Source: a phage. From it: a stretch of DNA of 64,000 nt. Shown here one piece after another: positions 26,435-39,273 of the stretch (the first letter of the stretch is position 1; every line of letters starts with the position of its first letter). Under the pieces are notes generated by a model that was given only the letters and a program-made list of their open reading frames with translations, made no database searches and was not told the DNA's origin. The translations under genes were made by a program, and so were the position numbers. Location of the stretch: sequence record PX246731.1. One strand, given 5' to 3'.

Positions 26435-26605
26435 ATGAACAAATTTACTATTCACTGGTTTAATGGAAAGGTTAGTTCTTTCATGGGTGGAGAACCTGCT
26501 GAAGGAAAGAAAGCATTTCACATTGAATCAGAAGGCTGCAAAATCTTAGTACCGTATGTTTGGTATAAAGATGGTGAAGTAGAAGCATTAAAAAAGAGTA
26601 GTTAA
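26435..26605 (+). CDS. hypothetical small protein
   Basis: 56-aa ORF from an internal ATG with tgagg RBS (ORF track 26339..26605). Confidence 0.3.
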   Translation: MNKFTIHWFNGKVSSFMGGEPAEGKKAFHIESEGCKILVPYVWYKDGEVEALKKSS

Positions 26606-27185
26606 TATCGTGAAGGGTTCTGTTAGAATCCTTTGAGATAGGAACTCCTATCATAACCTTTCTTAACTTAATCTTTGCCGTATGGCACTGACGCTAGGGT
26701 TGATGCCCATCCGTCAGTTAGACTATTTTAAGAATGGGTTATCACAGAAAATGTAAAGCAACATTCGGGTTAATCAATGGCCTCTCCCTATATGGGCCAT
26801 TTCTGAATCTTAGGCTATATCCCAAAGGTTAGTATCTTTGGGATAAGGCTTCAGATCCCTTATCAAACTAACGCTCATGTTGAGCACAACATTAACCCTT
26901 AATGTCGGATAGTTCATTAGGCTATTCCTCCAACATCGAGATGTTAGGTCTTACATGTAAGCTAAAACATAGGGTAAAGAGGGACTTGTCATCCCTCCCC
27001 TATTATGACATCCTATCAATGAGTACATTAAGCTAACGTGCGGAGGTTTACACTGTAGCCGGTGTAGATAGAGAAGACGGCAGGATAGCTACCTGTGCTT
27101 AGTGTACTCTTTGATAGGTTGTGCTATCAAAGTCCAGACGATATCTGAGTGACTTTAAAAACAGATGGAGCCAGGTGGAATCCCT

Positions 27186-27261
27186 GGCAATTAATTCCGG
27201 TGTAGGTACTAGTGTCGTGCACGGCATGAGCATTCTGGTTCGAGTCCAGACGCCGGAACCA
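27186..27261 (+). tRNA. tRNA-like gene 1 (3' half well defined; 5' boundary approximate)
   Basis: T-arm tctgg-ttcgagt-ccaga (27234-27250), 3' acceptor strand cgccgga (27251-57), discriminator A, encoded CCA (27259-61). A complementary tccggtg lies at 27196-27202, only 63 nt upstream, so the cloverleaf could not be completed by hand. Confidence 0.45.
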
Positions 27262-27263
27262 AT

Positions 27264-27387
27264 TACCAGTTGCACGAGATGGCTTGACATGTTCAAGTTT
27301 GGACTAAGTATGACACCGCTAGATTGGAGGGCTGCTGCGGTAAGCTATAGACTCCAACCGGGGGTTCGAATCCCTCACTGGTAACCA
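27264..27387 (+). tRNA. tRNA-like gene 2 (possibly carrying an insertion; boundaries approximate)
   Basis: T-arm ggggg-ttcgaat-ccctc (27360-76), 3' acceptor strand actggta (27377-83), A, CCA (27385-87). The only perfectly complementary 5' strand, taccagt, is at 27264-70, giving about 121 nt, longer than a canonical tRNA. Confidence 0.4.
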
Positions 27388-27439
27388 ATTCAAAGTAGCA
27401 TTGTGATAATCCATCCCGGAGTTCAAAGGCCAAACATGG

Positions 27440-27514
27440 AGCAGTGCTACTTTGAATTAGAAGAATTATGGCGGGTCTGGTGAAGTAGATGGGGTTCGAT
27501 TCCCTCCGGTGGGT
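27440..27514 (+). tRNA. tRNA-like element 3 (T-arm/acceptor-like 3' half; uncertain)
   Basis: ggggttcgattccctc T-arm-like motif at 27491-27506 followed by cggtggg; no convincing 5' acceptor strand found by hand. Confidence 0.3.
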
Positions 27515-27581
27515 AAAACCACTAGCGTGCTTGGTGCACGAATAAGACTTAATACTGGTGGTTCGATTCCATCCCCCGTTA
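27509..27581 (+). tRNA. tRNA-like element 4 (uncertain)
   Basis: T-arm ggtgg-ttcgatt-ccatc (27557-73), 3' acceptor-like ccccgtt (27574-80); partial 5' complement ggtgggt at 27509-15 (73-nt span). Candidate anticodon hairpin at 27525-41 with UGG in a 7-nt loop. No encoded CCA. Confidence 0.35.
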
Positions 27582-27890
27582 TTTGAAGTCGCCAGGTACT
27601 TATGGCAAACGGGTAGTAACGAACTAGTCATTCGTCAAACGCCCACCTTATTATGAGTCAGCAAGAACGCCTTCACTTAAACTTAAACAAAAAAAAGCTT
27701 AACGCAATAATTATGTAGGGGTATGTAAGGATTGCGAAGAAGGAGCCAGTTAAAGCCTGGCATGACTCAACTTATTAATAGAGAACATAGTCCTGATTGC
27801 ATTGCACTCTAAAGACAATGCCGGTGAGACAGTCCGGCACTCTAATTATTGTAAACATACAAGACTCGTTAGCTGCGTTAAAGCTACTAA

Positions 27891-27918
27891 GTCCCTCTTC
27901 GGAGGGACTTTTTTATTT
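27891..27918 (+). terminator. Rho-independent terminator
   Basis: Stem gtccctc(27891-97)/gagggac(27902-08) with 4-nt loop, followed by ttttttattt. Confidence 0.7.
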
Positions 27919-27978
27919 GAGTATTAATAAGCGCAACCATGTTTAAGTACAAATTCAAACCACTCTATGAGGCTAATA

Positions 27979-28359
27979 ATGGCAACAGTAAGTAAAGAAG
28001 CAATCGAATCTAAGATTAAGAGCGTTTACTATTTCAATGAAGCTGATGCAGTGAAGTCTGCATTCGTTGACCCATCCGCACTTCCAGCAGATGATTTGAC
28101 TAACCTGGGTCTGACAACCCATTGCATTATCATCTTGGAAAATGGCTTCAAAGTTGAAGGTGTCTCTGCCTGTGTAGACCCGGCTATCTATGATGAGCAA
28201 AAGGGTCGTCAGTATGCATATGAAAATGCATTCAATAAGATTTGGGAATTAGAGGGTTACCTGCTACGTCAGGCACTGCATGAGAAAGAAGAGACTGCTA
28301 AGGCTCTGGCTTCCTTTGCAGAAAACAATACCTGTGATGGTGGTGGTTGTACAATCTGA
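27979..28359 (+). CDS. hypothetical protein
   Basis: ATG 27979 with gagg RBS (ORF track 27967); C-terminal CDGGGC; isolated plus-strand gene between the tRNA region and the late block. Confidence 0.45.
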   Translation: MATVSKEAIESKIKSVYYFNEADAVKSAFVDPSALPADDLTNLGLTTHCIIILENGFKVEGVSACVDPAIYDEQKGRQYAYENAFNKIWELEGYLLRQALHEKEETAKALASFAENNTCDGGGCTI

Positions 28360-28440: not shown

Positions 28441-28469
28441 AGCCCCTCTAATGAAGGGCTTTTTCATTT
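28441..28469. terminator. Bidirectional terminator hairpin between convergent genes
   Basis: Stem agcccct(28441-47)/agggct(28455-60) flanked by A-runs upstream and T-runs downstream; sits at the 3' ends of the plus-strand gene 27979..28359 and the minus-strand vRNAP gene. Confidence 0.6.
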
Positions 28470-31400
28470 AGTTAGTGAGGTTGAGCCATGGGTTCAGGGT
28501 ATGGGCACGTAAACCTTGTCCGAAACCGAAGGAGTAACCGAGATTACCCTGTGCAGCAATGCTAAAGATGTTGTCCTGAATAGGTAAACCAACGTTACCA
28601 AACATGGTAGGAGTTGGTGCTAACATAGCCATAGCAGCATGTACCGGGTTATTACGAATCATGGACACTGCAACTTTTGCAGAACGAATCTTAAAGTTGT
28701 AGAACCACATTAAACCAACACTTTCCATATATCCACGGAAGCGTCCTGGTAAACGGTCATAGTTAATGAACTCTTCCGTTACACGTCCTAGTGCTTCTTC
28801 ACGAGTCTTACCCTTACGCTGAGTCAGTTCATCATAAATGATTGCTTTAGCGATAAAGTCAGAGTACTCAACTGTCTTCTGAATACCCTGGAACAGAGCA
28901 GTATCCTTAGTGATAAGTGCATAACGACCAGCGTTACGTACAGACTTAGGCAGCTTATCAGCCAGCTTATCCATGTATTCGTGAAGTTTACCTTCAGTAA
29001 TCAGAATGTCATCACGCCCGATACCAGCATCTGCAATTGAAGAGAACTCTCCAGCTTCCAACAGAGGCCAGATACTCAAACGTTTATGGCTATCAGAGAT
29101 GGACTGAATCTCAGCCTTAAGTTTACGAATCTGGTTCGGGTTAGTAGCTGCACGTAATTCTGCTTCTGCATCTACCTGACGCAGACGAGATTTCAAGTAC
29201 TGGTTAATCTCAGCAGTTTTCTGTGGAATGCTCTTAGCAATATTCTTAACAGGTACACCACGAGCAACCATCTGGTAAAGGTTAGCCAGGAAGTTAACAG
29301 CAGGTACGACTACTGACTTAACTACAATCAGAGTCTTAGCTTCTTTAACTAAGTTCTGAACCAGGTTCTCACCACCCATTACGTACTTATAGGCACGGTT
29401 ACCAAATACACCCAGCATAGCTTTCTTGAAGGTATCCAGTGTTTCTGGGGACCAACGAGAATTACCAGACCAGGCATCACCAACAGAAGCTGCACGATAA
29501 CCAAGAGCATCATTCAGCATGTCACGACGTACCCACAATTCACCAGGACCAAACAGACTTTCTGCTTTCTGACGTGTTTCGCTGTTCATCAGTTTAAGAG
29601 CATCAGCAGTTACTGGGTCCAGTTTAGAACCAAGAAGGTTAACGTACTGGGACTTATTAGAGGCAGACATCTTAATGTCGTTCTCATACATGCTATGCAG
29701 GTTCTCAATCAGCATATCGTTGAAACGCTGAGCCTTAGCCTCTTCTACCTGACGTCCACGCCATACACCGATTGCACGAGCAAGATGGTTCTCACCTTCA
29801 ATATGCTTCAGCATGTTAGGGTCAATAGATTGCTCGTAAGCAACCACATTGCCATTGGCATCATATACAGGCAGCAGGGGTTCATTACCACGTTCACCAC
29901 GAGCCAGTGCTTTAGTGATACGGTCTACGGAAGGCTTGTCAGTAATACGACCAGCTACCATGGTTCCCATCGTAAAGCCTGTACCTAGGTCTACACCACC
30001 AGCAGTATTACGAACGTTCTGCAGGATACCCTGTGAGAATGGAGCCTGTGCCTGTACTGGTGCAAAGTAGTAGCTACGAGCAGAACCACGATTAGCAGAG
30101 CTACCCTGATACGTACCCAGTCGTACATAGGATTTCTCAATCAAATCAGCAAACTGACTATCTTCAGCAACAATCAGGTTAACGCCCTGTTTAGTTTCAC
30201 CAGGAATATACCCTTTGTACTGGTTCAGGGTTGCACGGCTATCAGACTTGGCTTTAGCCATTTCATCTTTACGCTGACCAACCAGGTAAGAAGTAGCAAA
30301 GTCCATGCCTTCAATTTCTGTCTGAGCCAGCGAAGATAACATCTCACGGTCAATCTTATTCATTGCTTCCAGTGCATATAGGGTAATGAGTTTATCCAGC
30401 TGAGCTACATCAACAACAGAACGTGTAGTCTTACGTTCACCAAGCAAGCGAGAAATTGCAGTAGCATTACGCAGTAGGTTATTACCAACTGTACCATTAA
30501 TCATGTACTGAGCCAGTTGCTTAGATTTACGATTAATCAGAGGCCAGTTACGCCCTGCTTGTTTCTGCAAATCTGCTTCCAGTTTATTAACCTCACGGTC
30601 AACAATCTTCTGGTCAGTCAGCAGGTCACGGATTTCATCCAGAGACATAGTGTCACGTAGAACAGCTAAGTCAGTTTTACCCATACCGGTATGCATTGCT
30701 TTCCACTCATCGTTGGTCAGCTTACGGCTGAACTTAGCTGCGATAGTGGTAGGCAAGTGTTCACGGAACTGTTGACGGTCAGCCTGTACCTGTGCACGTA
30801 CTGCTTTAATCAAATCATACACAGAAGCATTGCTCTTAGTACGTCCGATTATGTCATTAACCAGGTCATGGAAAGGTTGCCATACTTTACCCTGATTCAT
30901 TGCAGCCATAACACCCTCAGCTACGATTGAACCATTCTTCTCTGTAGCAATAGCAGCTACCAGTTGTGCAGCATGAGCAGCACCTTTAACCAGTGGGTTC
31001 TTGGTATTAGCTGCAACTTCACGAGCACCTTCCAGAGCACGGGTAGACAGTACATCAATAGAGTCCACCAGATACTGGTTAGCACGGTCAATAGCATTAC
31101 CAGTAGGAGTAGCAACGGAATCATAGAAGGACTCTGCATTAAGACTGGTCTGCATGATTGTCTGAGCCAGTGCATCCATACCTTCCTGTACGTTAGTGGC
31201 TTTAGTATCACCTGCTACACGAGCATTCAGACTAGCCATTGCAGCAGTACCGATGTTAGTCAGCATTGCATCAACAGTATTGCCTGACTTCTTATCCGCT
31301 TTCATAACAGGAATATCAGCCAGTACCTTACGTACCTCTTCACTTACCATTGCCAGACCTACAAAGGTAGGCAGCAAGGAAGAACGACCCTGTGCATCAA

Positions 31401-34400
31401 ACTCAATATTGTTAGCACCCATGATGGTATCGAACTTCTGCTGTGCATAGTAACGGTCAGCAGGGTTAGTACTATCCGGGTCAGCCATGAACGCTTCAAC
31501 AGTCAAGTTCTTAGTAACGTGTGTGTAGTATTCCTGTGCACGAGCCATAGCAGCAGGATTAATAGCAGCCTCGGTAGCCAGTGCAGCAACAATGTTAGTA
31601 AAGAGACGCTGTTCCTGCATATTCATGGTGAAGCCATGAGCCTGAACATCACGGGTTACTTTAGTTGCATTCACTACTGCATCAGAGAACTTACCTTTAC
31701 GAATTACTTGCTGTACTGGTTCTGAACCAATGTAGTTAGTAATTAGCTTATCGAAGGTTTTCCCTAACTCTTCCAGACGAGTATTGTCACCATATGCTTT
31801 GTTATGGAACAGGGTAGTGTCCTTAGCTACAGCAGCAGTAGGAGCTTGCCCACGCATTACTACAGCAGAGTTAAACAGTAAGCCAGAGAACATATCATCT
31901 GCATTAGCTGGAGCTTTCTTACGACCAAATACCAGACGTTTGATTGCTTCGTATACAGCCTGAACCATAGTTTTAAGTGCAGTGGTTTTCTTCTGCTTAC
32001 TAATCAGTTCTCGGTTGGTTAAACCCCAAGCCATGTACTCGTTCAGTGCAGCAGCTTTAGCCATTGCTGGTTCAATGAAGCCATTAGACAAGTGACCATT
32101 AATGGTATTAAGTGCATCAGCATATGCTTCACGTACTGCCGGAGATTCATCATTAACATCCAGAGCACGGAACTGGTTCATCAGGTCTTCAATATTCTGG
32201 ACAGCTTCATTAGGAGTACCTTCGTAGTGAGCCAGTACAGATTCAAAAGTAGAAGCATGTACCAATTCATGAACCAGAGTCTCTAATGAAGGAGTAACTA
32301 AGTAGATGGTCTTATCTTCAAAGTTAGTCCAGCCATATGCATTACCTGCTTCAGCAGCCTCAATATCTTCTGGTGCTGGGCGAGTAATATTCTTCTCAAT
32401 AGCATAGGCATCCAGTTGAGAAGGTGTACCATAAACAACCTTATAGTCTTTAGCAGCAAGGGATTTCTGTATTTCTTTCAATACTTCTTGCTGTTCAGGA
32501 GACATCTCTTTAGCCAATTTAGTAATAGCAGTATTAGACAGCAGACGTACACCAGATTTCAGTACACGACCAACTTGTTCCATTGCTGGTACTTCTTTCA
32601 CTGGTTCTGCTTTAGCAGCACGTACTGCATCACGACGCTTGTTTAATTCAGCATCAAACAGTTCGTTCAGCTTAGCTACTTGCTGGTCTACAGTAAGCCC
32701 TTCCAGAGAGATTTTACCGTTGTTCACATAAGGAGCACCAACAGCAGCCATCTGGTCAACAGTGACTTGTACCTGGTCCATTACCTTGTGACGAATATCT
32801 ACACCCAGGGCAATGTTACGCAGATTACGCTCAATCAATGCAATACCAGAATCCTTAATCATAGAAATTTTATAATCTCTATCACCATCTACTCTGGCAA
32901 TATGAGTACGTTGCTCAAAGTCTAAAGCAGACTTTGCAATAGCATCTATTGCTGAATCGGACAGCTTATTTAAATCAACATTCTTAACAAACTTAGAGAA
33001 AGACTCATAAACATTCTTGATAGGGTTACCCTGCCAGGAAGTGTATACAGCCTCATTAGCTTTACGGCTTGCATCAGTAATGTCATTGATACCAATGTTC
33101 ATACCATCAAAGATTTTAAGGGTATTCTTCGGAGCACCCTTCATAGTAGAAAGAGTCTGCATCATCATGCCATCACCAGTACCAATGGTCATAAATGGAA
33201 TACCTGCAACACCTGCTTGTGAAGGAGCATAGATGCTCATTGGCACACGCATACGGTCATCTAAGTTGGTAGCCAATACTTGGTTAGCAACATCAGTATT
33301 CTCGCTGCCAGCAATGTAGAAAGTCTGGGAACCAGTCTCAATCATTGGAGCCAGTGGTGCTAAACTATTCTGAATTTCATTCAGTTCTTTCTGTGTTAAG
33401 AAATCACCCTTCTTCCATGTTGGGTCTTTTTCTTTTTCTGCCAGTTTAGCCTGTACTGCCTGTTGGAACATATCCTGCAATACCAGAGATTGAATCTGAG
33501 TAGCCTTCTGCAAGTTCTCCGTAGATTGCATTAACCCATCGCCAACAGTGAATCGGATACCTTGTCTCATTGGCTCAACAAAGAAGTGCAGCATATTCTC
33601 TTGTAAGTTCTTAAGAGCATCTCCGGATACGGTAAACTCCTGGGGGTCTAACTTACCAGTCAGAACACCATCTACTTCTTTAATGAATAACTTACCTTTA
33701 CGCTTAGCTGGAATATTACCAGTCAATGCTTTCATAGAAGTAAGGAAGGTATCCAGCATAGCCTGAGCATCAGCCTCAGAAGCAGCCTCCTTACCAAACA
33801 TCGCCATAGCTGGGGAAATGTTAGGGTCAACAGCACGGGCTTTCAGAACGTCGCTTAGACGCTCATAGATGGTATCAGTAATTGCACTTACCATCTTGCC
33901 TGCAATACCACGAGCACCAGAACCATAAATGGTAATAGTCAGTGGGTTTTTAGCGATACCACGCTTCAGGTCCAGAGTACCATCTTCATTAAGATTGAAG
34001 TCTTTGATGAACAGGTCCATTAACTTCTGGAGATGGTCCATCTGGTTTATAACAGGAATATTTTTACTATAAGCATTGCGTAATTCATTTAGATAGAATT
34101 GCAGACTATTAGTAGATGCTTCATACAGGTCAACACTGTCTTCCTGAGTATGATGCTCATTCATGGTCTTACCGGCTTTACCGAAGAACAAACCACCTTT
34201 GGCAGTATTCTTAATCCAGTTTGGAGTGAACTTACCACCGGTCATTAATACCATTGCGTTGATTGGACCGTTGGTTACACCATCGGCTTCAACGTACAGT
34301 GGGGTATTAAAGTTGGCACGGTCATCACTGTTAAGGTAACGGGCATATTCCATAAGAGCCATAAGAGCTACAAAGGATTTATCATTACCCAAAGAGGTCG

Positions 34401-37400
34401 TCAGAATATTCACTGCATCGGTAGGTAAGTATCCAGACTTATCAAACTCAACCATCATATCTACAGCAGGTTTCAGCTTACCTTCCAGAGCTTTGGTAAG
34501 TTCCTCTGACATAGTTTCACGAGTCATTTTATGAACTTTGATACCCAATGCCTGAGCCAGTCCAAGCTGGAAGCCTGAGAAGTCTTCATTGTTCTGGTTC
34601 GATAAATCCAGAGTAGCTTTGGTAGGTAAGATAGCCTCACGAACTAGCTTAGCTGATTGAGGGTTATATTTACCTAACATCTGCATACGACCAACACGGG
34701 TCATATTGTAAGCATAGTGAATAGGTACAGAAGAAATGTCTTCACTCTGTGCTCTTACCTGTTCAATAACAGAGAACAATTGGTTGTAAGAATCCTCTAC
34801 TGAACGGTTTTTACCTTCCAGAGATTTAGCATGGTTCTTATTAAGTAAATCCTTATCCAGAGTACCAGCACCCATCAATTCGAGAATACGGTCTTTACCT
34901 AAAGCCTCATAGAACTGAACCATTGGGGTATGCACAAAGAACTCTGTAGCCTGCTCTGCTTTAAGGGCAGCTTTCTGTTCCGGAGTATTACGGACAGCAG
35001 GGTTACGTAACTGAGTATGAGCCACGGGAGGAATGTCATCACCGAAATACAGTTTCTCTACTGGTTCTACGAGGACAGCTTCCTCGATAGCAGTAGGGAA
35101 TTTGTTAATAGCGTCGGTATCATCCAGCTTCTCAATGGTATACAGACCAATAGTCTTATTGGATTCTGGGTCAATTTCAGACACATCCAGCATGGACTCT
35201 TTAACTTCACCCATTTCAATAAGGGAAGACAGAATCTCTGTAGCCATTGCCATCGGGATACCTTTGGTATAACCAAGTGGTGCATCAGCATTACGATTAA
35301 GTCCCCAGTAAGATTCAATCTTTTGAGCCAGTGAGTTAGTAGCTTCTACTAAGGTTTGTGCATTCTCAAATTCTGCGAGGATACCTTCTGGTAACAAGGA
35401 AGCATTTACACCAGTAATTGCAGCCACATCCTGCATGTCTTTAATAGCAGCATTCTGTGTAGCAGTAAGTCGCCATTGCAGACCAGCAAGTACAGCAGTC
35501 TCTAACAACTGGTCATTGAACTTAAAGGTGTCTCCGTCTTTCTCTACGATATTAAGTAACTTACCACCTACCCAACGGTTAGCTTCAGTACCTTCTGCAA
35601 AACGTTTACCAACGTTCTTGTTAGCAAGGAATTTAGCCAGACGGTCAGACAAAGTAGTCTTCAGAGTTTCACCAAACTCAAATAAGTCCTGGTAACGCTT
35701 AATCACATCACTTGTGAGAGCGTTATTTTCTTTTTGAGTAAATGCTTCAAAACGAGCAGCAGAAGACAGTGCTTTCTTAACATCAGTTAAAGGAGATTCA
35801 GAACCAATGGTACGGGACTTAGGTTCTTCTGGCAGACTAAATGCTTTAAGGAACTGGTTCGGTGTCTTTTCATTGTTATAGACAGGGAACACTGCTTCCA
35901 TTCCCGATAGAGGTTTACCACCAACAGTATAGTCTGCTTTCAGTTGAGCCAGTGATACTTCTTCTTTCTCAACATTATTGGTATTAAGCCCAGATGTATC
36001 TACACCAATCTGAATCAGTGCATTGTTTGCTTCTACGAATGATTGAACAGTATTGAATTGTTCAGCAGTTAGCTTCTGATTATCAAACAATTGCAGAGAT
36101 ACGAACGGTTGCTCACTACCTTTATAGAAAGTAGAACGTACAGCACCAGTATCCAGAGACATGTCACGATAACCATCATGACCAAATACGTCAGACAGAC
36201 TGATATGGTCGCCATTGGAACCAACAACAGTACCATCAGCGAATAGCCATGGACTATCTCTACGGTCACCATACTTATTAAGAGTATCTTGTGAAATAGT
36301 ATTCTCTTTCACATAAGAATCTCTTTCAGATTCAGTAGGCTGTTCAACGATATCCTGTTTTTCAGACTGGTTCTCAGGTTCTTTTACGGTTTGTGGTTTA
36401 GACTCTTTAATAGTAGGTTCTGTTTTAACAGCTTCACTAACAGAGGGTTTAGTCTGTACAGTAGGGGTAACTGGTTCCTGTTTTATAACAGGAGCTTCAT
36501 CAACCTGATTCACTGGTTCATTGGTCTGTTGGGATTGAGCAGCATCAAGATTGCCCTGACGGAACTCTTTAACTACCTGGGCAGCAGGTTTGTCCAGACG
36601 TGAATCCAATGGGGTAACTTTCACATGAGAAACATTAAGCTCCGGGTAAGCCGTAGCAAGTGCGTTAGCAATATCAGCTACGGTCTTGGCTTCCAGTCCT
36701 ACTTGCTGGGCAAACTTAACAGACTTGGTATCATACGGATTGACACCGAGGCCAGTACGACTACGTACCCATTCACGCGAGGGAGTAAGAGCCTGATAAT
36801 GGACAGACTTATTCTTATCCGCATTCCCAGAAATCAAATGCTCATTCAATGCTCCGACCTTATTCTGCATGTGCTGGGCGAACTTCATAAAGTCGTCGAG
36901 ATAAGCGGAAGCCAAATCGAAGTTACCAGAGTTGTACGCAGAACGAATGCGTTTAGCATGTTGCAACGCAGAGTACTGGCCTTCATTAGAACGAGATTCG
37001 TCGGTTTTAATCTGTTTACTAACAATGTCTTGAGGACGTAAGCCTAGTTCTTCTGCTTTAGCGTCAAATTCTCGTGCTCCTTGCAATAAAGCAGCAGCAG
37101 ATTGCAGGGCAGCACGCTGACGATTACCCAGTGTAATCTTACCTTCACTTGCATGTTTCAGAACCATGTTCACTGAATCCGCATCCAGCACTTCTGGAGA
37201 CATATCAGCAGCCATAGCAATGTTGTTTGCCTGAGCTTGGTTAGCTTTTTCAGTAGCTTTCAGTTTACCTGCTTCAGCCTGTTCCTGAATCATAGAATGG
37301 ATGGCACGGAATGCACGGAGTACCTTCGGTGTATTCTGAACATTAGCCATCAGGCCAGAGAATTGGTCAACAATATTAGCAGCAGGAGAACCCTGTTCCA

Positions 37401-39273
37401 GATTAGCCAGAGCACCCGGGTCACGGTTAATGAAGCTATCCATAGACATGATGTTGTCATACATCTGGATTGCAGCTTCCATTTGAACGTTAGGGTCTTC
37501 GGCAGTATTAACCAAGTCAGCCATCTTCTGAATAGCTTCAACACGGTTAGTGGAACCAGAAACAGCTTCACGGATTGCCGGGCTAGCCTGTTCCAGTTCT
37601 ACTGGGTCAAACTTCATTACCTGAGTTAAGTCAGCAGCATACTGTGTAGCAGCAGCTTTCTCTTCAGGAGAAATGTCCATTGCATCTACTGCTTCCTGAA
37701 CAGTTGCCTGTGCCTGTTCTGCCTGAGCAGTAGCTTCTTGTGCAGCAGCGTTAACCGTAGCATCAGATACAGGGGATGCTTGCTCATTACGCTTAGCAAC
37801 TTCTTCACCACGCTGAACCAGGATGTTAGTAATAGGTGAAGCTACTTTCGCTAATGCTTTACCAGCCAGAGAAGCACCAGCCAGGGTAGTACGTACAGCA
37901 GGACCTACGGCAGCACCAGCAGCCTTAACAGTTGCACCAGGAGCTTGAGCAACTCCAGCACTACCGAAGCCATACAGTGCACCAAGCCCGGTTTGTTCAC
38001 CCACACCTTTAAGCAAATCACGATTAGCATCTACATTACCTTGAATTGCTTTGTTCTGTGCAAACTGACTTGTACCAGACTGGATACCTTCTTCTACAGT
38101 CTCACGCAGCATGTTAGAACCAGCTCCAGCCAGTGAACCTACCTTAAGTGGGTTAAGTTCAAACTTGGATACCAGTGGAGCAGTAAGAGCAGCAACTGGA
38201 GCAGTTAAGCCAGCAGCAGTGATACCTGTTTCAGATGCAGTCTGACGACGTGCTTCTTCAGGAGACAGACCATCTTTAATATGCTGTTGGTATACAGGAG
38301 ATTTAGCAGCCAGTTCACTGAACGGCATTTCCATAATTTCATTAGCAGTCTGCTGGTATGCACCACCAGCTTCCATACCACCAATTGCTATAGCAGGTGC
38401 AGCAACACGACCAGTAGCTAATGCAGTACGTGCAGGACGCGAACCTAATTCAGCAGCTAGGGTAATACCCTTAACAGCTTTATCACCACCTACCATTACT
38501 TTACCAAGTGCAGATACACCACGGATAAGTGGACCACCAGTAAACAATGAACCAACACCCTCAGCCAGACCATCTGTAGCAGCCATGCCATTAGATAAGG
38601 TGTTAGCAACAGAATCATAAGCATCACGACCAATTCGAGATAGGGAAGCAACGAGTTCACTTTCTCCTTTATCAATATCTTGCTTATAGAGTTTCTCATT
38701 CTCCTGAGCAGATATTACGTTCTGGTTCTGTACTACATTACGGCGAGCATTCAGTGCATCAGACTGTAGGTTGTGTACACCTTTATTTAACCAGTCAAGA
38801 CCGGAAGCAGTGGATGCCCCGGCATTATCATTGACCAAACCTGTGCCAAGAGCAGCAATGCCCCCAAGGGTATTAGCAACACCAAGACCAACACCAGAAA
38901 GGGTATCACCAAGTGCTTCACCATATGTACGACTCTTAGTTAAATCACGACGAACAGCATTAGCTGCATTGACACGAGCATTGAGAATGTCCATTCCTTG
39001 CTCATTGCCATACTTGTTTATGATTTCAAGAGGAGAGGCATTAGTAAAATCTGCCTGAATAGAACCTGGGTTAAATGCACCAGCACCTAAGTTACCAGCA
39101 CGGCCTGCCTGTAATTGGTAGGCGTTCTGTGGGGTTAATTGGAAAGGGTTTTGCCCTTGTTCAGCTTGTTTCCGAGAGGTTGCAGTAGAGACATCGACTT
39201 GCTTAGCAGTAGTGATGCTGTCTGCGAAACCTGCCAGACGGTCAAATGTTGACATAGCATGATTCCTGTTCAA
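28468..39273 (-). CDS. virion-encapsidated RNA polymerase (N4 vRNAP-like giant protein)
   Basis: Single uninterrupted 3601-aa ORF. A roughly 3500-aa virion RNA polymerase is the hallmark of N4-like phages, and the position at the start of the minus-strand late block matches N4 gp50. Confidence 0.8.
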   Translation of the reverse strand: MNRNHAMSTFDRLAGFADSITTAKQVDVSTATSRKQAEQGQNPFQLTPQNAYQLQAGRAGNLGAGAFNPGSIQADFTNASPLEIINKYGNEQGMDILNARVNAANAVRRDLTKSRTYGEALGDTLSGVGLGVANTLGGIAALGTGLVNDNAGASTASGLDWLNKGVHNLQSDALNARRNVVQNQNVISAQENEKLYKQDIDKGESELVASLSRIGRDAYDSVANTLSNGMAATDGLAEGVGSLFTGGPLIRGVSALGKVMVGGDKAVKGITLAAELGSRPARTALATGRVAAPAIAIGGMEAGGAYQQTANEIMEMPFSELAAKSPVYQQHIKDGLSPEEARRQTASETGITAAGLTAPVAALTAPLVSKFELNPLKVGSLAGAGSNMLRETVEEGIQSGTSQFAQNKAIQGNVDANRDLLKGVGEQTGLGALYGFGSAGVAQAPGATVKAAGAAVGPAVRTTLAGASLAGKALAKVASPITNILVQRGEEVAKRNEQASPVSDATVNAAAQEATAQAEQAQATVQEAVDAMDISPEEKAAATQYAADLTQVMKFDPVELEQASPAIREAVSGSTNRVEAIQKMADLVNTAEDPNVQMEAAIQMYDNIMSMDSFINRDPGALANLEQGSPAANIVDQFSGLMANVQNTPKVLRAFRAIHSMIQEQAEAGKLKATEKANQAQANNIAMAADMSPEVLDADSVNMVLKHASEGKITLGNRQRAALQSAAALLQGAREFDAKAEELGLRPQDIVSKQIKTDESRSNEGQYSALQHAKRIRSAYNSGNFDLASAYLDDFMKFAQHMQNKVGALNEHLISGNADKNKSVHYQALTPSREWVRSRTGLGVNPYDTKSVKFAQQVGLEAKTVADIANALATAYPELNVSHVKVTPLDSRLDKPAAQVVKEFRQGNLDAAQSQQTNEPVNQVDEAPVIKQEPVTPTVQTKPSVSEAVKTEPTIKESKPQTVKEPENQSEKQDIVEQPTESERDSYVKENTISQDTLNKYGDRRDSPWLFADGTVVGSNGDHISLSDVFGHDGYRDMSLDTGAVRSTFYKGSEQPFVSLQLFDNQKLTAEQFNTVQSFVEANNALIQIGVDTSGLNTNNVEKEEVSLAQLKADYTVGGKPLSGMEAVFPVYNNEKTPNQFLKAFSLPEEPKSRTIGSESPLTDVKKALSSAARFEAFTQKENNALTSDVIKRYQDLFEFGETLKTTLSDRLAKFLANKNVGKRFAEGTEANRWVGGKLLNIVEKDGDTFKFNDQLLETAVLAGLQWRLTATQNAAIKDMQDVAAITGVNASLLPEGILAEFENAQTLVEATNSLAQKIESYWGLNRNADAPLGYTKGIPMAMATEILSSLIEMGEVKESMLDVSEIDPESNKTIGLYTIEKLDDTDAINKFPTAIEEAVLVEPVEKLYFGDDIPPVAHTQLRNPAVRNTPEQKAALKAEQATEFFVHTPMVQFYEALGKDRILELMGAGTLDKDLLNKNHAKSLEGKNRSVEDSYNQLFSVIEQVRAQSEDISSVPIHYAYNMTRVGRMQMLGKYNPQSAKLVREAILPTKATLDLSNQNNEDFSGFQLGLAQALGIKVHKMTRETMSEELTKALEGKLKPAVDMMVEFDKSGYLPTDAVNILTTSLGNDKSFVALMALMEYARYLNSDDRANFNTPLYVEADGVTNGPINAMVLMTGGKFTPNWIKNTAKGGLFFGKAGKTMNEHHTQEDSVDLYEASTNSLQFYLNELRNAYSKNIPVINQMDHLQKLMDLFIKDFNLNEDGTLDLKRGIAKNPLTITIYGSGARGIAGKMVSAITDTIYERLSDVLKARAVDPNISPAMAMFGKEAASEADAQAMLDTFLTSMKALTGNIPAKRKGKLFIKEVDGVLTGKLDPQEFTVSGDALKNLQENMLHFFVEPMRQGIRFTVGDGLMQSTENLQKATQIQSLVLQDMFQQAVQAKLAEKEKDPTWKKGDFLTQKELNEIQNSLAPLAPMIETGSQTFYIAGSENTDVANQVLATNLDDRMRVPMSIYAPSQAGVAGIPFMTIGTGDGMMMQTLSTMKGAPKNTLKIFDGMNIGINDITDASRKANEAVYTSWQGNPIKNVYESFSKFVKNVDLNKLSDSAIDAIAKSALDFEQRTHIARVDGDRDYKISMIKDSGIALIERNLRNIALGVDIRHKVMDQVQVTVDQMAAVGAPYVNNGKISLEGLTVDQQVAKLNELFDAELNKRRDAVRAAKAEPVKEVPAMEQVGRVLKSGVRLLSNTAITKLAKEMSPEQQEVLKEIQKSLAAKDYKVVYGTPSQLDAYAIEKNITRPAPEDIEAAEAGNAYGWTNFEDKTIYLVTPSLETLVHELVHASTFESVLAHYEGTPNEAVQNIEDLMNQFRALDVNDESPAVREAYADALNTINGHLSNGFIEPAMAKAAALNEYMAWGLTNRELISKQKKTTALKTMVQAVYEAIKRLVFGRKKAPANADDMFSGLLFNSAVVMRGQAPTAAVAKDTTLFHNKAYGDNTRLEELGKTFDKLITNYIGSEPVQQVIRKGKFSDAVVNATKVTRDVQAHGFTMNMQEQRLFTNIVAALATEAAINPAAMARAQEYYTHVTKNLTVEAFMADPDSTNPADRYYAQQKFDTIMGANNIEFDAQGRSSLLPTFVGLAMVSEEVRKVLADIPVMKADKKSGNTVDAMLTNIGTAAMASLNARVAGDTKATNVQEGMDALAQTIMQTSLNAESFYDSVATPTGNAIDRANQYLVDSIDVLSTRALEGAREVAANTKNPLVKGAAHAAQLVAAIATEKNGSIVAEGVMAAMNQGKVWQPFHDLVNDIIGRTKSNASVYDLIKAVRAQVQADRQQFREHLPTTIAAKFSRKLTNDEWKAMHTGMGKTDLAVLRDTMSLDEIRDLLTDQKIVDREVNKLEADLQKQAGRNWPLINRKSKQLAQYMINGTVGNNLLRNATAISRLLGERKTTRSVVDVAQLDKLITLYALEAMNKIDREMLSSLAQTEIEGMDFATSYLVGQRKDEMAKAKSDSRATLNQYKGYIPGETKQGVNLIVAEDSQFADLIEKSYVRLGTYQGSSANRGSARSYYFAPVQAQAPFSQGILQNVRNTAGGVDLGTGFTMGTMVAGRITDKPSVDRITKALARGERGNEPLLPVYDANGNVVAYEQSIDPNMLKHIEGENHLARAIGVWRGRQVEEAKAQRFNDMLIENLHSMYENDIKMSASNKSQYVNLLGSKLDPVTADALKLMNSETRQKAESLFGPGELWVRRDMLNDALGYRAASVGDAWSGNSRWSPETLDTFKKAMLGVFGNRAYKYVMGGENLVQNLVKEAKTLIVVKSVVVPAVNFLANLYQMVARGVPVKNIAKSIPQKTAEINQYLKSRLRQVDAEAELRAATNPNQIRKLKAEIQSISDSHKRLSIWPLLEAGEFSSIADAGIGRDDILITEGKLHEYMDKLADKLPKSVRNAGRYALITKDTALFQGIQKTVEYSDFIAKAIIYDELTQRKGKTREEALGRVTEEFINYDRLPGRFRGYMESVGLMWFYNFKIRSAKVAVSMIRNNPVHAAMAMLAPTPTMFGNVGLPIQDNIFSIAAQGNLGYSFGFGQGLRAHTLNPWLNLTN

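Follow-up and report, generated by a model that had tools for sequence, protein, structure and literature searches.

What are four T-arms of the kind found in transfer RNA (tRNA) doing in a stretch of phage DNA from which no tRNA gene is called? The question is raised by phage record PX246731.1, of which a window of 64,000 nucleotides (nt; the whole stretch analysed, single strand) was examined. The T-arm motif GGTTCGANTCC occurs four times in this window, always on the + strand, at positions 27237, 27363, 27493 and 27560. Dinucleotide-preserving shuffles of the 64-kb window gave an expectation of 0.03 copies, and four copies were reached in 0 of the 100 shuffles. The four copies, all within 27237-27570, had been picked out in an earlier note on this DNA, and they are real. 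The core of its description, canonical 3' halves within a non-canonical overall architecture, holds as well. However, the four T-arms do not stand for four elements, as motifs 3 and 4 are two hairpins of a single 113-nt unit. The locus holds three structure-supported RNA families, here called E1, E2 and E3/4, that have no entry in Rfam and escape tRNA finders, and that are of a known but unexplained kind. All three retain the "top half" of a tRNA, formed by acceptor stem and T-arm, while the D-arm and anticodon arm are replaced by other hairpins. The earlier interpretation is partly supported, and the right category for these units is that of conserved tRNA-like (tRNA-mimic) RNAs.

Unit E1 is a 66-nt tRNA-like RNA on the + strand (27196-27261) that ends in ACCA and was delineated from the sequence, RNAalifold and pair counts. 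Its acceptor stem of 7 base pairs (bp) joins UCCGGUG (27196-27202) to CGCCGGA (27251-27257). The 5' strand of this stem is followed by U8 and A9, a 7-nt single strand (GGUACUA), a 6-bp central hairpin with a UGCA tetraloop (27212-27227), a 6-nt strand and the T-arm UCUGG-UUCGAGU-CCAGA (27234-27250). A discriminator A and an encoded CCA (27258-27261) complete the unit. Homologues were gathered from GenBank phages and IMG/VR. In the alignment of eight distinct E1 sequences 100% of the cells are paired, and four compensatory pairs were found in the central hairpin and the T stem, compared with 0-1 in slid controls. E1 is present at full length in 58 phage records, all of which (58/58) cover at least 80% of the unit. 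Public records label it tRNA-Undet or tRNA-OTHER (SPSP, KP8), and the mitochondrial mode of ARAGORN called precisely 27196-27261 as 'mtRNA-???', with an 'anticodon' of 2 nt. A scan with the 5' pattern CCGGTGTAGGTANTAG was rejected as a means of finding E1, as it matched mostly unrelated coding sequence.

E2 (27264-27387, + strand) is a tRNA-shaped RNA of 124 nt with two over-long arms. Its 7-bp acceptor stem pairs UACCAGU (27264-27270) with ACUGGUA (27377-27383) and encloses a first long arm of 38 nt (27273-27310, including a hairpin at 27281-27299), a second of 34 nt (27324-27357) and the T-arm GGGGG-UUCGAAU-CCCUC (27360-27376). This unit, too, ends in ACCA, a discriminator A and CCA at 27384-27387. 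The earlier note had seen a discriminator with CCA on two of its elements and had placed the 5' acceptor strands of elements 1 and 2 at a distance upstream; both observations are borne out, by the 3' ends of E1 and E2 and by the strands UCCGGUG and UACCAGU. In the alignment of 11 E2 sequences 99.2% of the cells are paired, with five compensatory pairs (three in the acceptor stem, one in the hairpin and one in the T stem) against none in slid controls. The acceptor stem covaries from UACCAGU/ACUGGUA to UACUGGU/ACCAGUA. The 43 phage records that contain E2 have it at full length, with at least 80% of the unit covered in each (43/43).

The third unit, E3/4 (27469-27581, + strand), is a double-T-arm RNA of 113 nt without an encoded CCA, whose structure is supported by RNAalifold and pair counts. 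It is closed by a 7-bp acceptor-like stem (27469-27475 / 27575-27581) in which five pairs covary. The 5' strand of the stem is followed by a 15-nt single strand with an invariant GG, by hairpin A (27491-27505; 4 bp and the loop UUCGAUU, which is motif 3), hairpin B (27508-27523), hairpin C (27526-27540; 5 bp and the loop UUGGU), a 16-nt linker, the T-arm GGUGG-UUCGAUU-CCAUC (27557-27573; motif 4) and a 1-nt bulge. The 7-nt acceptor-like strand that had been reported after every motif is found after motifs 1, 2 and 4, whereas the 7 nt that follow motif 3 are the 5' strand of the next hairpin. In the alignment of 14 distinct sequences, which include three T4-like and two KP8-like ones, 97.3% of the cells are paired and 14 of 27 pairs are changed on both sides, compared with a mean of 7.3 in shuffles, 0 of 500 of which reached 14, and 1-3 in slid controls. 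RNAalifold recovered the hand-derived fold unaided. About 50 cells of the alignment are G-U pairs that would give C-A mismatches on the opposite strand, and the E3/4 structure therefore belongs to the + strand RNA. In KP8-like phages the closing pair of hairpin C, C27530-G27536, is A-U. Because these two positions pair and covary, the loop at 27530-27536, which had been put forward as a candidate UGG anticodon loop, is a pentaloop, UUGGU.

E3/4 is present in 41 phage records and complete to at least 80% in every one of them (41/41). It is found at about 80% identity in the T4-like myophages VR25, VR5, TH15/22/40, PEi20 and CkP1, which BLAST matches nowhere else in the 460-nt query. The T4-like copy lies 12 nt 3' of tRNA-Met and 3 nt 5' of tRNA-Arg (e.g. 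in VR25). An origin of E3/4 from tRNA-Pro(UGG) was rejected, as the tRNA-Pro of N4 scores no better than other tRNAs with the E3/4 covariance model (R1) and the loop has 5 nt. The G3-U70 identity element of alanyl-tRNA synthetase was rejected as well; it is present in the window but is not conserved, being A-U in pSb-1 and G-C in KP8.

None of these units is recognized as a tRNA by standard searches. ARAGORN found no tRNA or transfer-messenger RNA (tmRNA) gene in the whole window, and at gathering threshold Rfam gave no match in the window. Even at E<=10 the tRNA family RF00005 matched neither E1 nor E2, and the only tRNA-type match at this level was tRNA-Sec (15.3 bits, E = 8.1), spanning E3/4. 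The E3/4 covariance model gave weak matches (12-22 bits) to real tRNAs through their acceptor/T-arm parts. ARAGORN was run in default mode and with -i, -ps80/-ps60, -mt and -m; across these modes E1 alone was called as an armless unit, along with an intron call, the low-threshold calls being inconsistent and not used. The earlier note had proposed ARAGORN as a check, and the default run finds no tRNA, while the intron mode yields only a chimera of two units. This chimera, a 181-nt 'tRNA-Pro(tgg)' at 27207-27387 with an 82-nt intron, joins the internal UACUAGU of E1 to the 3' end of E2 and was rejected, since it contradicts the covarying acceptor stems of both. Moreover, such a tRNA is impossible in KP8, because E2 lies upstream of E1 there. 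A permuted arrangement, with a 3' half before the 5' half, was not seen by eye.

Of the parts of the cloverleaf, E1 and E2 have a 7-bp acceptor stem, a discriminator and CCA; E3/4 has a stem with a bulge and no CCA. The T-arms have a 5-bp stem with G-C next to the loop and 7-nt UUCGANU loops, and their stems covary. A D-arm is absent: its place is taken by the 7-nt strand in E1, by the 15-nt strand, which forms no stem, in E3/4 and by the 38-nt arm in E2. The anticodon arm is absent too, with the 4-nt loop UGCA in E1, the 5-nt loop UUGGU in E3/4 and the 34-nt arm in E2. The same tools find ordinary tRNA genes in relatives of this phage, and none was called there at the homologous units.

The cluster lies within a 1.36-kb gap (26605-27967) that holds no conserved open reading frame (ORF) and that is the tRNA region of N4-like relatives. 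Judged by its sequence, the window is that of a G7C-like N4-like coliphage (Gamaleyavirus, Schitoviridae). It has 92-97% identity with St11Ph5, U1G, EC1-UPM and ECBP1 over 20 kb, and the compared segment takes in the virion RNA polymerase gene; the genome was typed as N4-like because this N4-type ORF of 3601 amino acids (aa; 28468-39273, minus strand) is present. Among the tRNAs of the relatives, Ile-AAU is well supported by Rfam, and Ala-CGC and Cys-ACA are called by ARAGORN alone, below the Rfam tRNA threshold. Their cassettes (L001 706-777; L002 1085-1163 and 1865-1939) are cleanly missing from the window, with junctions at about 27006, 27120/27131 and 27779, and no convincing direct repeats flank them. 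Like the window, with which it is collinear, U1G has no tRNA. The four-T-arm block is kept in all relatives that carry those tRNA cassettes.

Conservation of the units exceeds that of the protein genes around them. Compared with the window, N4 has 92-96% identity in the block formed by E1 and E0, a module directly 5' of E1 that is described below, and 66-76% in the flanking genes; in KP8 the units have 76-87% identity and the protein genes about 67%. From genome to genome the units recur in different orders, as intact modules. In KP8 E2 stands ahead of E0-E1, in L159 E0 is directly followed by E3/4, in pSb-1 a hairpin stands between E0 and E3/4, and in N4 E0-E1 is followed by a different T-arm unit. 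Partial copies were found in 0 of 142 occurrences of E1, E2 and E3/4 (at least 80% coverage).

We consider it reasonably probable that E1, E2 and E3/4 are non-decoding tRNA mimics that are matured by the tRNA-processing machinery, and that they are of the same kind as the RNAC and RNAD of phage T4. What is directly supported here is that the units are structured, conserved and inherited in modular fashion; transcription, processing and stability of the units we infer. The acceptor/T-arm parts that the units retain are the features recognized by RNase P, by the CCA-adding enzyme and by T-loop modification enzymes. In the proposed pathway the + strand of the 26.6-27.9 kb gap would give rise to a single structured polycistronic precursor that ends at a terminator at 27889-27918. 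Each acceptor stem would be cleaved at its 5' end by RNase P, which recognizes the acceptor/T-arm stack; this enzyme processes non-tRNA substrates such as tmRNA, 4.5S RNA, phage M3 RNA and P1/P7 C4 RNA (PMC11143913). RNase E would cleave the A/U-rich AAUU linkers that follow the encoded CCA in E1 and E2, and exonucleases would then trim them; the CCA-AUU junctions fit the cut that RNase E makes in E. coli tRNA precursors 1-3 nt past the CCA (PMC2190699). In E3/4, where no CCA is encoded, the 3' end would have to be trimmed and CCA added. This pathway would yield stable RNAs of about 66, 124 and 113 nt, unable to read codons. In E1 and E3/4 the strand after the acceptor stem contains an invariant GG and could form a tRNA-type elbow with the T-loop.

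Phage tRNA clusters are now taken to serve codon supply and the evasion of tRNA-cleaving defence, and it is from the use of phage tRNA genes against such defence systems that the idea of a decoy is taken. As a speculation on function, the units might occupy host proteins that bind the top half or elbow of tRNA, e.g. tRNA-targeting defence nucleases or processing and modifying enzymes, and would then be accessory modules comparable to phage tRNA genes. A role in trans is favoured because gain and loss of the units between close relatives resemble those of phage tRNA genes. The mimics are kept in this phage although the discrete canonical tRNA cassettes of its relatives are absent.

Several points weigh against such non-decoding mimics. 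T4 RNAC and RNAD themselves have no known role (PMC3014915, PMC9697503). The literature yielded no RNA-seq or northern blot for any N4-like coliphage and nothing specific on N4-like small RNAs or phage tRNA-like decoys. No convincing sigma-70 promoter was found directly upstream. E0, E1 and E2 are missing from G7C, and the units are dispensable, since not even all members of the genus carry them. With 8, 11 and 14 distinct sequences from few independent lineages the alignments are shallow, so that part of the covariation signal is shared ancestry. In E2 the interior arms are invariant in all copies aligned and, because they never vary, their pairing is only predicted.

The units might instead act in cis only, as signals for processing, punctuation or stability like the t-elements of plant mitochondria. 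RNase P/Z would then be recruited for cleavage of the precursor or for protection of neighbouring RNAs, the excised pieces being functionless. The tight array with its short AAUU linkers and the interleaving of the units with long closing-stem hairpins and E0 would suit such signals, and RNase P does cleave structures of this type (PMC11143913). However, there is no messenger RNA to punctuate, given a gap that lacks a conserved ORF and a terminator that precedes the next gene, and the interiors of the units (hairpins B and C, the linker and the UUGG loop) show conservation or covariation that would be superfluous in a simple cleavage signal; we therefore think a purely cis-acting role unlikely. 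We are a little more sceptical of a bolder proposal, in which E0, E1, E2, E3/4 and the stem-closed inserts are mobile, interchangeable cassettes that move among Enterobacterales phages unrelated to one another and have a trans-acting effect on the tRNA world of the host. In its boldest form E3/4 would bind tRNA. Pairing of a loop with NCCA 3' ends is known from T-box leaders and from the L15 loop of RNase P RNA, and the invariant UUGG loop of E3/4 would be complementary to such ends while its two T-loops dock on the tRNA. In this way tRNAs, or the ACCA-ended E1 and E2, could be sequestered or protected by E3/4 in the course of infection, and E0 would be a leader element of a new kind that acts on RNA polymerase or on processing.

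The remaining explanations would deny that the units are functional mimics at all. That they are decaying tRNA pseudogenes, or recombination scars left by deletions in a former tRNA cluster, and look conserved only through recent divergence, is suggested by the tRNA cluster that relatives have in this region, by the lack of any canonical tRNA cassette in this phage and by hairpin A of E3/4, which resembles the 3' part of a former tRNA; indeed, the units are probably derived from tRNA genes. Yet every helix is kept paired by compensatory changes, identity across genera is above that of the adjacent protein genes, no partial copy was found among the 142 occurrences, and E3/4 recurs with about 80% identity in T4-like myophages that BLAST otherwise leaves unmatched. 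Because of these compensatory changes, of conservation above that of genes and of copies that are always complete, the degenerate fragments that the earlier note had allowed for are very unlikely. Its other suggestion, genuine tRNAs with unusual features, fares worse. Decoding tRNAs, whether armless or bearing an intron or insertion, that are aminoacylated and used in translation could account for the 7-bp acceptor stems, the canonical T-arms and the encoded ACCA of E1 and E2, for the label 'tRNA-Undet' given to E1 by tRNAscan-SE in public records and for the ARAGORN calls of E1 (-mt) and of 'tRNA-Pro(tgg)' (-i). But a 5-bp stem bearing a 7-nt loop with U33 is missing from all units, D-arms are lacking, the intron call is chimeric, the -mt 'anticodon' has 2 nt, and neither the default ARAGORN run nor Rfam, including RF00005 on E1 and E2, supports a tRNA, so that this reading is highly improbable and largely refuted. 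As for protein coding, mechanical ORFs of 87 and 112 aa do exist at 27121-27384 (+ strand) and 27293-27631 (minus strand), and some GenBank records annotate a 'hypothetical protein' there. Both ORFs are broken by stops or frame changes in U1G, UE-M6, PhAPEC5, Bp4, KP8 and L020, and both are broken by the rearrangement of the modules. Judged by conservation, coding has next to no chance of being right and is already refuted.

Among known RNAs the closest parallel to the units is offered by T4 RNAC and RNAD (species 1 and 2 RNAs), which are likewise small non-coding RNAs in a phage tRNA cluster, on the tRNA strand. Membership of a tRNA cluster is given here by the tRNA region of the N4-like phages and by the placement of E3/4 between tRNA-Met and tRNA-Arg in VR25. 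RNAC, of 139 nt, ends in the T-arm CCGGG-UUCGAAU-CCCGG followed by an acceptor-like strand, and the ACUUAAUA linker ahead of the T-arm is common to RNAC and the units described here. However, the BLAST match to rnaC/rnaD is limited to the 13-nt T-loop and the E3/4 covariance model (R1) gave no match there at E<=10 (L012 1409-1672), and homology was rejected on these grounds. Furthermore, rnaC and E3/4 are distinct genes, because VR25 carries both an rnaC homologue and E3/4.

With canonical tRNA (RF00005) the units share the acceptor stem, the T-arm, the discriminator with CCA (E1 and E2) and the location in a tRNA cluster; they differ from it by having neither D-arm nor anticodon arm and by their lengths of 66, 124 and 113 nt. 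The tRNA genes that phages use against host defence are accessory cassettes in the tRNA clusters of lytic phages and are gained and lost between close relatives, as the units are, but they encode decoding tRNAs with anticodon loops, which the units lack. A mimic of the acceptor/T-arm part recruits tRNA-processing enzymes in tmRNA, in the Y RNA-like YrlA of bacteria, in mascRNA, a tRNA-like small RNA of eukaryotes, and in plant mitochondrial t-elements (PMC11143913, PMC1920247). In contrast to tmRNA, the units have no tag ORF or pseudoknots, and the ARAGORN tmRNA search was negative; they also give no Rfam match to any of these four families and differ from them in genomic setting.

The E3/4 family is common to N4-like podophages and T4-like myophages, and units of this kind are retained even in a phage without any canonical tRNA gene. 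In public records they are mis-annotated as 'tRNA-Undet', 'tRNA-OTHER' or 'hypothetical protein'. They are compact targets for deletion, pull-down and processing experiments.

The cluster is accompanied by E0, a 60-nt two-stem RNA module that is not tRNA-like (27131-27190, + strand). It consists of stem 1 (27131-27154) and hairpin 2 with the loop UGGAAUC (27170-27188). Both stems are backed by covariation: at pair 3:22 of stem 1, 16 sequences have U-A and 28 have C-G, and four compensatory pairs are seen in hairpin 2; an inner hairpin and a pseudoknot alternative are indistinguishable. E0 matches no Rfam family and is unannotated. At least 120 viral contigs contain near-identical copies, as do about 100 phages in GenBank, whose types are unrelated (N4-likes, 9NA-like, SopranoGao, DS8 and Klebsiella temperate phages); besides the window, the loci are L013-L016, L026-L143 and L249-L265. 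Among bacterial genomes it was found in Enterobacterales only. In temperate phages E0 has the position of a leader, 3' of a CI-like repressor gene and ahead of early genes, and elsewhere it is flanked by structured units or immediately precedes a ribosome-binding site.

For E0 a likeness to the put antiterminator RNA of phage HK022 (putL/putR; two stems, about 70 nt, in the leader just 3' of an early promoter) was considered. In temperate phages the position and two-stem shape of E0 are comparable; in lytic phages E0 lies inside RNA clusters. BLAST with E0 gives no HK022 match, the put sequence itself not having been compared, and a put-like role for E0 is suggested by positional analogy only. 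E0 was rejected as a transcript start, since by eye no promoter-like hexamers were seen upstream in several contexts. A further candidate, the GCAGGUGGAACCC sequence 3' of T4 rnaC, does not form the E0 hairpin.

E0 is usually followed by a variable insert closed by CACAACnG...CnGUUGUG, and in one version this insert is a hairpin that phage lambda carries directly behind tR'. This CACAACAGGUAAGAGCA...UGCUCUUUCCGUUGUG hairpin follows E0 in several phages (L014, L016, L082) and lies in the lambda late leader immediately after tR' (L267, 44787-44870). It was also seen in 157 E. coli genomes that lack E0, as well as in the N4-like phage St11Ph5 (L001 ~1055-1160).

Two long hairpins on the + strand separate or precede the units. 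The spacer between E2 and E3/4 (27388-27460) has a perfect closing stem of 17 bp and a minimum free energy (MFE) of -26.5 kcal/mol (z = -5.0; 0 of 200 shuffles equally stable). In relatives this stem encloses other interiors, some of them with T-arms (L005, L006, L020, L021, L024). Upstream of E0, a long-hairpin module at 27008-27122 has an MFE of -51.8 kcal/mol (z = -5.8); its closing stem is kept in relatives and in KP8, where the interior differs. Both hairpins look like interchangeable stem-closed cassettes, and their long perfect stems could be RNase III sites.

The gap is bordered on one side by the final + strand middle genes and on the other by a gp48-like ORF (27967-28359). An intrinsic terminator, AAGUCCCUC-UUCG-GAGGGACUU with a U run (27889-27918, + strand), was predicted by a terminator scan and by partial Rfam matches to the terminator hairpins of small-RNA models. 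It most likely ends the transcription unit of the non-coding RNAs ahead of the gp48-like ORF. A 52-nt block at 27784-27835 is 83-90% conserved in N4, KP8, UE-M6 and PhAPEC5, far above its surroundings, and lies just 3' of the slot that holds tRNA-Ile in relatives.

Further T-arm units were observed in other genomes. N4 (L009 ~1636-1750) and G7C (L021 3001-3088) contain a non-canonical one, absent from the window, in which a closing stem AAGAACUCUUA/UAAGAGUUCUU surrounds UUAGG-UUCGAAU-CCUAA. In the unrelated viral contigs L144, L145, L153 and L155 another conserved element with the T-arm end …GGGUGAAAGUCCGCGCGGGUAGAUGAGGUUCAAGUCCUCCCUCGGC lies beside tRNA-Met/Gln genes, which suggests that T-arm-bearing units other than tRNAs are common in phage tRNA clusters.

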